Source: Giardia intestinalis (Eukaryota). From it: a stretch of DNA of 64,000 nt. Shown here piece after piece: positions 35,598-35,706 of the stretch. A program made the translations under genes and the position numbers. The DNA lies in assembly GCA_000002435.2 (NCBI GenBank), contig CM018791.1. One strand, given 5' to 3'. Position 1 is the stretch's first letter; each line of letters begins with the position of its first letter. Below the pieces are notes generated by a model. The model was not told the DNA's origin. It did not search any database and worked only from the letters and a program-made list of their open reading frames with translations.

Positions 35598-35706
35598 GTA
35601 TGTTCTTATGCGCGAGGAGCCGTCCGCTGACCGCACACACCTCTGATTGCGGGTTGTGTGTTGTCAGCGGGTGGACTTCGCTGTTCACCTGACAACTGAC
35701 CCACAG
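35598..35706 (+). other. Spliceosomal cis-intron of rpl7a (109 nt)
   Basis: 5' GTATGTTC, and a 3' branch/acceptor motif AACTGACCCACAG fused to the AG (Giardia consensus CT[AG]AC..CACAG). Splicing joins ...DVDPLE to LVLWLPTLCHKMGVPY in frame, restoring the conserved eL8 block DVDP(I/L)ELV.FLP.LC.KMGVPY. Confidence 0.9.

Follow-up and report, generated by a model that had tools for sequence, protein, structure and literature searches.

Structure of the Rpl7a locus

The window, by which we mean the whole stretch of 64,000 nucleotides that was analysed, appears from the offset of published RNA-seq coordinates to be NC_051858.1:544001-608000. Its plus strand carries the Rpl7a/eL8 gene of Giardia duodenalis (assemblage A, WB-type) at 35172-35958, and we are nearly certain that this gene is interrupted by one spliceosomal cis-intron of 109 nt at 35598-35706. 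The features of the locus are the following.

35105-35171, plus strand: AT-rich region with conserved blocks directly 5' of the start codon, a putative Giardia-type initiator/promoter
35172-35630, plus strand: ORF1, 152 aa
35647-35958, plus strand: ORF2, 103 aa
35172-35597, plus strand: Rpl7a exon 1, 426 nt, codons 1-142, ending ...ANDVDPLE and identical to residues 1-142 of 7pwg_G
35598-35706, plus strand: Rpl7a spliceosomal cis-intron, 109 nt, phase 0, GT-AG, placed by junction scoring and by the composite splice motif, and described in PMC1201135 and PMC10711314
35598-35604, plus strand: 5' splice site GTATGTT, without variation among the 8 distinct intron sequences of the five lineages
35612-35681, plus strand: internal hairpin, intron nt 15-84, 28 base pairs, MFE -46.4 kcal/mol, z = -3.85
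35695-35706, plus strand: fused branch-point/3' splice-site motif ACTGACCCACAG, whose putative branch A, nt 35699, stands 7 nt away from the 3' splice site
35707-35958, plus strand: Rpl7a exon 2, codons 143-225 and the TAA stop, starting LVLWLPTLCHKMGVPY
35521-35883, minus strand: 120-aa antisense ORF overlapping the intron, 363 bp, as long as the largest ORF of GL50803-20429

The Rpl7a intron is already known; it has been in the literature since 2005 and is well characterised. Russell, Shutt, Watkins and Gray (2005, BMC Evol Biol 5:45; PMC1201135) reported that the annotated G. lamblia L7a (EAA41652) was abnormally truncated, and described an intron of 109 nt with GT...AG boundaries, in phase 0, with the branch motif ACTGAC in place of ACTAAC and at a position conserved in animals and Dictyostelium. 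Their intron (GL50803_17244) is at the same locus as ours, with host gene, length, boundaries, ACTGAC and phase 0 all matching. A re-analysis of 70 WB transcriptomes in 2023 listed the junction NC_051858.1:579597-579706 (+), 109 nt, GT-AG, as a 'Type A' intron of GL50803_0017244 (PMC10711314), so that the RNA-seq junction from 35597 to 35707 foreseen by the initial annotation had in fact been reported, with reads in 64 of the 70 datasets. The mean splicing efficiency was 0.64, which is typical of the 'often spliced' Giardia introns (mean 0.649; PMC10711314), and some unspliced reads thus exist; for this reason some cDNA with the 109 nt still in place would not be enough to refute the intron. 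These published transcriptome data are the evidence for splicing of the Rpl7a intron that we use here.

Several public Giardia assemblies annotate the gene in pieces as 'LSU ribosomal protein L7AE', with truncated entries of 152 aa (ESU42320.1, KWX13152.1, ESU38144.1) and second pieces of 103 or 117 aa, among them a separate entry of 103 aa (ESU38143.1). The GenBank entries are truncated because the intron was not modelled.

Reading frames and the spliced product

The 109-nt interval, whose first letters are GTATGTTC and whose last letters are AACTGACCCACAG, holds stops in all three frames. The frame of ORF1 ends at 35630 and that of ORF2 is open only past the TGA at 35644-35646. From 35630 to 35647 neither frame is open, and one ribosomal frameshift thus cannot join ORF1 to ORF2. 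With exon 1 of 426 nt, the intron lies in phase 0 between ...ANDVDPLE and LVLWLPTL..., and the splice boundaries read GAA/GTATGTT ... CCCACAG/CTC. The initial annotation had described a 109-nt intron splitting eL8 into the ORFs at 35172-35630 and 35647-35958, and every element of that description is present where it was placed.

Translation of join(35172..35597,35707..35958), which the initial annotation had put forward as a check together with an alignment to eL8, gave 225 aa, identical at 225 of 225 positions to the eL8/L7a chain 7pwg_G (E 1.5e-148) and gapless across the junction. 7pwg_G is the eL8 chain of a cryo-EM structure of the Giardia 60S subunit, and eight further such entries agree with the product at every residue. 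Against vertebrate, plant, fungal and protist eL8, residues 26-216 of the spliced product matched with E values from about 1e-58 to 1e-45, the vertebrate chains at about 1e-58, and no gap falls at the junction in the alignment to eL8 of vertebrates and other eukaryotes. The Pfam profile PF01248 (Ribosomal_L7Ae) scored 69.2 bits against the spliced product (cut-off 22.1) and covered profile positions 10-88 in one stretch, whereas ORF1 covers positions 10-46 and ORF2 positions 42-88. In an alignment of nine eukaryotes, which took in G. muris, Trepomonas, Spironucleus, Dysnectes, Blastocystis, a tunicate and a chytrid, the junction fell inside the conserved eL8 block ANDVDP[IL]E/LV. Removal of the interval thus restores this block and rejoins the L7Ae domain, as had been claimed.

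The position of the junction was examined by enumerating 4,537 in-frame, stop-free junctions and scoring each product against five non-Giardia eL8 proteins. The 35597/35707 junction reached the top score of 500.2 among the 4,537 models, and the next GT-AG model scored 482.4. The models that tied with it are one- or two-base slides that encode the identical protein and are without GT-AG. Other GT-AG junctions, built from the donors 35621, 35582, 35564 and 35540 and the acceptors 35668 and 35740, gave lower scores against non-Giardia eL8 and were rejected.

These data also bear on expression without splicing, in which the gene would yield two polypeptides of 152 aa and 103 aa or would be read through the gap by programmed ribosomal frameshifting. 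Two L7AE entries are indeed annotated by prokaryote-style gene callers and in several GenBank records, but the closed frames leave no position at which one frameshift would join them, the L7Ae domain would be cut in the middle of its fold, the eL8 chain in the ribosome is an uninterrupted 225 aa and RNA-seq junction reads have been published (PMC10711314). We therefore consider unspliced expression extremely improbable.

Splice signals

The donor GTATGTT agrees with the published Giardia/Trichomonas donor consensus GTAYGT (PMC1201135). [quoted passage not shown] With no second match in the window and none in the shuffles, the composite motif excludes a chance pattern. The claim that the intron ends follow the Giardia splice consensus thus holds, with GTATGTT as donor and ACTGACCCACAG as acceptor, consistent with PMC1201135. 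The branch A at 35699 is placed from the motif and its position is accordingly putative.

The features of a Type A intron are all found. The donor conforms to [G/C]TATGT and is invariant in five lineages; in all lineages ACT[A/G]AC is fused to ..CACAG, with the putative branch A 7 nt from the 3' end; and removal of the intron leaves an uninterrupted, conserved coding sequence. Other Type A cis-introns are those of ferredoxin (35 nt), Rpn10 (29 nt), the dynein light chain (32 nt) and GL50803_35332 (220 nt). They share with Rpl7a the [G/C]TATGT donor, ACT[A/G]AC[A/C]CACAG and a fixed distance from branch to 3' splice site, and their published splicing efficiencies of about 0.6-0.77 are similar to that of Rpl7a. 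The Rpl7a intron differs as one of two long Type A introns, with a hairpin of about 70 nt that is missing from the short ones and with ACTGAC instead of ACTAAC.

Three copies of CTGAC, a pentamer of the branch motif, are present in the intron, all of them invariant across lineages. One lies in the 5' arm of the hairpin at 35626-35631 (CCGCTGACC), one at 35690-35694 just 5' of the branch motif (CACCTGACA) and the third at 35696-35700 within the branch motif itself (AACTGACC). The upstream copies could conceivably be decoy or alternative branch sites, or could take part in alternative pairing with the 3' arm (GTCAGCGGGTGG).

Since the interval has a stable internal structure, and structure-based splicing in Giardia has been speculated upon (PMC10711314), a self-splicing (group I/II) or other non-spliceosomal intron deserves mention. 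An Rfam scan of the whole window, in which snoRNAs and group I/II introns were tested, returned no family at the gathering threshold. Moreover, 109 nt is far below the size of a group I or group II intron and the boundaries fit the Giardia/Trichomonas spliceosomal consensus exactly. We regard such an intron as most unlikely, and nothing that we found contradicts the call of a spliceosomal intron.

Conservation across Giardia lineages and ancestry of the intron

The orthologous locus was recovered from 21 G. duodenalis contigs of independent assemblies, which represent five lineages and contain 8 distinct intron sequences.

Assemblage A (L013-L015): identical to the window
Assemblage B (L001-L010, L019-L021): intron of 110 nt
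Assemblage E, isolate P15 (L024): intron of 109 nt
Lineage X1 (L016-L018): intron of 108 nt
Lineage X2 (L022-L023): intron of 108 nt

The contigs of X1 and X2 come from runs ERR3333378-83 and SRR17450158. These two lineages may be the dog assemblages C and D, a guess that the text of PMC6939161 does not confirm.

In all 21 contigs exon 1 has 426 nt and the intron reads GTATGTT...CACCTGACAACTGACCCACAG, sits at the same codon boundary and is 108-110 nt long. Its divergence between lineages is 0.10-0.24 per site, while 4-fold degenerate sites in the flanking exons diverge at 0.26-0.50. By part, divergence amounts to 0-0.14 at the 5' end, 0-0.12 at the 3' end, 0.06-0.20 in the lower stem and 0.23-0.68 in the apical part; the apical part of the hairpin thus drifts at about the synonymous rate and the constraint is concentrated in the intron ends and the lower stem.

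This pattern leaves hardly any room for the 109 nt having arisen by faulty assembly or as an insertion, whether strain-specific or pseudogenising, a reading for which nothing speaks beyond the interruption itself and to which we give a practically negligible probability. The interval occupies the same codon boundary in the 21 independently assembled contigs of five lineages, has invariant ends and is under purifying selection, and it interrupts the sole eL8 gene recovered for these genomes, eL8 being an essential ribosomal protein.

A different matter is whether a genuine intron has been retained and conserved mainly through the overlapping antisense gene GL50803-20429, the 'overlap constraint' of Xue et al. 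2018. The antisense transcript has been demonstrated by strand-specific RT-PCR and RACE, with a largest ORF of 363 bp (PMC6545626). Nevertheless, only assemblage A keeps the 120-aa antisense ORF intact: at that place E, B and X2 lack any ORF of at least 60 aa that starts with ATG, and in X1 a remnant of 63 aa is left. Furthermore, the conservation of the intron follows the RNA hairpin and not a reading frame, with conserved arms, a free apex and G-U or compensatory changes. A conserved antisense protein was therefore rejected as the cause of intron conservation. The overlap constraint is weakened as regards a protein; a constraint through a non-coding antisense transcript is possible, and taken as a whole we hold this explanation to be unlikely.

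Outside G. duodenalis, the Rpl7a of G. muris (L011) is one continuous ORF of 654 nt in which the intron is absent, the DNA equivalent to the junction being GACCCTATCGAG/CTCGTTGTC. This agrees with the report that G. muris keeps three of eight cis-introns (PMC7641422). A contig of 8,387 nt from the Logan assembly of SRR30592944 (L012) likewise carries eL8 as one continuous, intronless 654-nt ORF (217 aa). This protein is 68% identical to that of the window and aligns more closely with G. muris eL8, and its source may be a further Giardia species that has G. muris as a relative; the genes that flank eL8 on this contig have no Pfam annotation on record.

The intron position was checked in one non-diplomonad, the tunicate Clavelina lepadiformis, a wider survey being that of PMC1201135. 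The Clavelina eL8 gene has a 226-nt GT-AG intron at DVEPIE/IVIYLP, the same boundary and phase 0 as in Giardia, which directly bears out, in this one distant eukaryote, the claim of an ancient intron. An ancient eL8 intron at DVDPIE/LV, in animals, Dictyostelium and Spironucleus vortens, occupies the same inter-codon position in phase 0. The splice signals differ, however: the Clavelina intron reads GTAAAT...TTTTAG with a polypyrimidine tract, whereas the Giardia intron is without such a tract and has the fused branch/acceptor motif. We infer that the Rpl7a intron is ancestral and was lost in G. muris.

Neighbouring sequences and the dynein fragment

In the AT-rich region that adjoins the start codon, the blocks ATTTAAAAAA..AAA..ATTTAAAT and CAATAAAACAG are conserved in the five G. 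duodenalis lineages and the remaining spacer diverges. Farther upstream, at 35031-35065, the spacer between the Prismane gene and Rpl7a contains a tandem duplication of about 20 bp (..TAGTATGTTTAACAC.. twice) found only in assemblage A, while E, B, X1 and X2 have one copy of the unit. The duplication contains GTATGTT by coincidence and could mislead a scan for splice motifs.

About 2.4 kb upstream of the Rpl7a intron lies an internal fragment of a dynein heavy chain (28978-33309, plus strand), with motifs at 33137 and 33199-33210. The fragment begins inside AAA1, where AAA_6 is matched at profile positions 233-327 only, and it stops inside the stalk, with positions 1-261 of the 344 in the MT profile. 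Its homology stops at ...LKDQFDK, after which the sequence reads GTATGTTACTGG; 62 nt farther on comes the window's sole copy of TCCTTTACTCAA, an RNA-processing motif published for Giardia. The end of the fragment resembles a 5' half-intron of the trans-spliced type already known. The pair of GTATGTT and TCCTTTACTCAA is kept in lineage X1 (positions 678 and 749 of L016).

In X1 (L016-L018) the dynein fragment is directly upstream of Rpl7a. Between the two, assemblages A, B and E have a gene for a 568-aa Prismane/hybrid-cluster protein (33268-34974 of the window, minus strand), which was not called in X1. A spacer of about 410 nt left there resembles, by eye, the 3' end of that gene, which suggests its deletion in X1. 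Elsewhere in the window, Pfam at E <= 1e-5 gave no match for the 4,360-aa ORF at 40383-53465 (minus strand) or the 551-aa ORF at 38700-40355 (plus strand).

The internal hairpin

The four other lineages, E, B, X1 and X2, form a hairpin equivalent to that at 35612-35681, and their z-scores range from -3.7 to -6.9. In the alignment of 8 sequences 96.8% of cells are paired, against 37-52% with the partners slid. One-sided variation, mostly from G-C to G-U, affects eight pairs, and four pairs have compensatory changes. The observed covariation score was reached by none of 500 shuffles, while the count of four compensatory pairs was reached by 103 of 500. As the covariation sample is small (8 distinct sequences from five lineages) and four compensatory pairs are unexceptional, the hairpin is supported mainly by the conserved pairing, the z-scores of the folds and the control with slid partners.

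The geometry is constant in the five lineages: the hairpin (69-71 nt) is preceded by 14 nt on the donor side and separated by 17 nt from the putative branch A, from which the acceptor is 7 nt away. Despite total lengths of 108-110 nt, the intron has exactly 39 unpaired nt in each lineage. For long Giardia introns (>50 nt), Hudson et al. 2019 (PMC6679479) described internal pairing that brings the unpaired distance from donor to acceptor to about 35-45 nt, and the 39 nt of Rpl7a fall within this range.

We also considered other functions of the hairpin. No conserved kink-turn-like motif was apparent in it on inspection by eye, and a kink-turn/L7Ae autoregulatory site was rejected, the internal loop AG/A of assemblage A being fully paired in assemblage B. 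The hairpin of about 28 bp is conserved to a greater extent than the splice signals demand, but it is very unlikely that it has a second role following splicing or alongside it, either in mirtron-like processing of the excised intron by Giardia Dicer or in tuning the expression of Rpl7a, and we found nothing that points specifically to one or the other. A literature search for Giardia mirtrons returned nothing relevant and no paper linking the Rpl7a intron to small RNAs. The idea of expression tuning arises because splicing is incomplete (about 0.64), yet this efficiency is typical of Giardia introns.

Implications for Giardia splicing

The Rpl7a intron provides a clean internal positive control, showing that the reading of GTATGTT as donor and ACTRACNCACAG as acceptor works in this window. 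The initial annotation had proposed the intron as a control for the splice-motif reading of the dynein gene, and this use is justified, the nearby dynein fragment ending with the same GTATGTT donor; the control supports the separate trans-splicing call on that fragment. The same donor motif occurs in the trans-spliced ('split') introns of the dynein heavy chain and Hsp90 genes, which depend on extensive base pairing of their two halves. The published model treats the hairpin of the Rpl7a intron, which is contiguous and cis-spliced, as the counterpart in cis of this pairing. The locus also bears on annotation, as intron-blind gene callers still split Rpl7a in public assemblies.

That the hairpin acts in splicing has been put forward as a hypothesis, for which we found no experiment in the literature examined. 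The spliceosome would recognise GTATGTT as the donor and ACTGACCCACAG as branch point and acceptor in one, its branch A being 7 nt away from the 3' splice site. The hairpin would loop out the middle of the intron, and the donor and the branch/acceptor would then be only 39 unpaired nt apart. The reduced Giardia spliceosome may thus meet an intron of effectively short size, after Hudson et al. 2019 (PMC6679479). The finding of 39 nt in five lineages adds modest support to the view that the hairpin keeps the effective distance from donor to acceptor constant.
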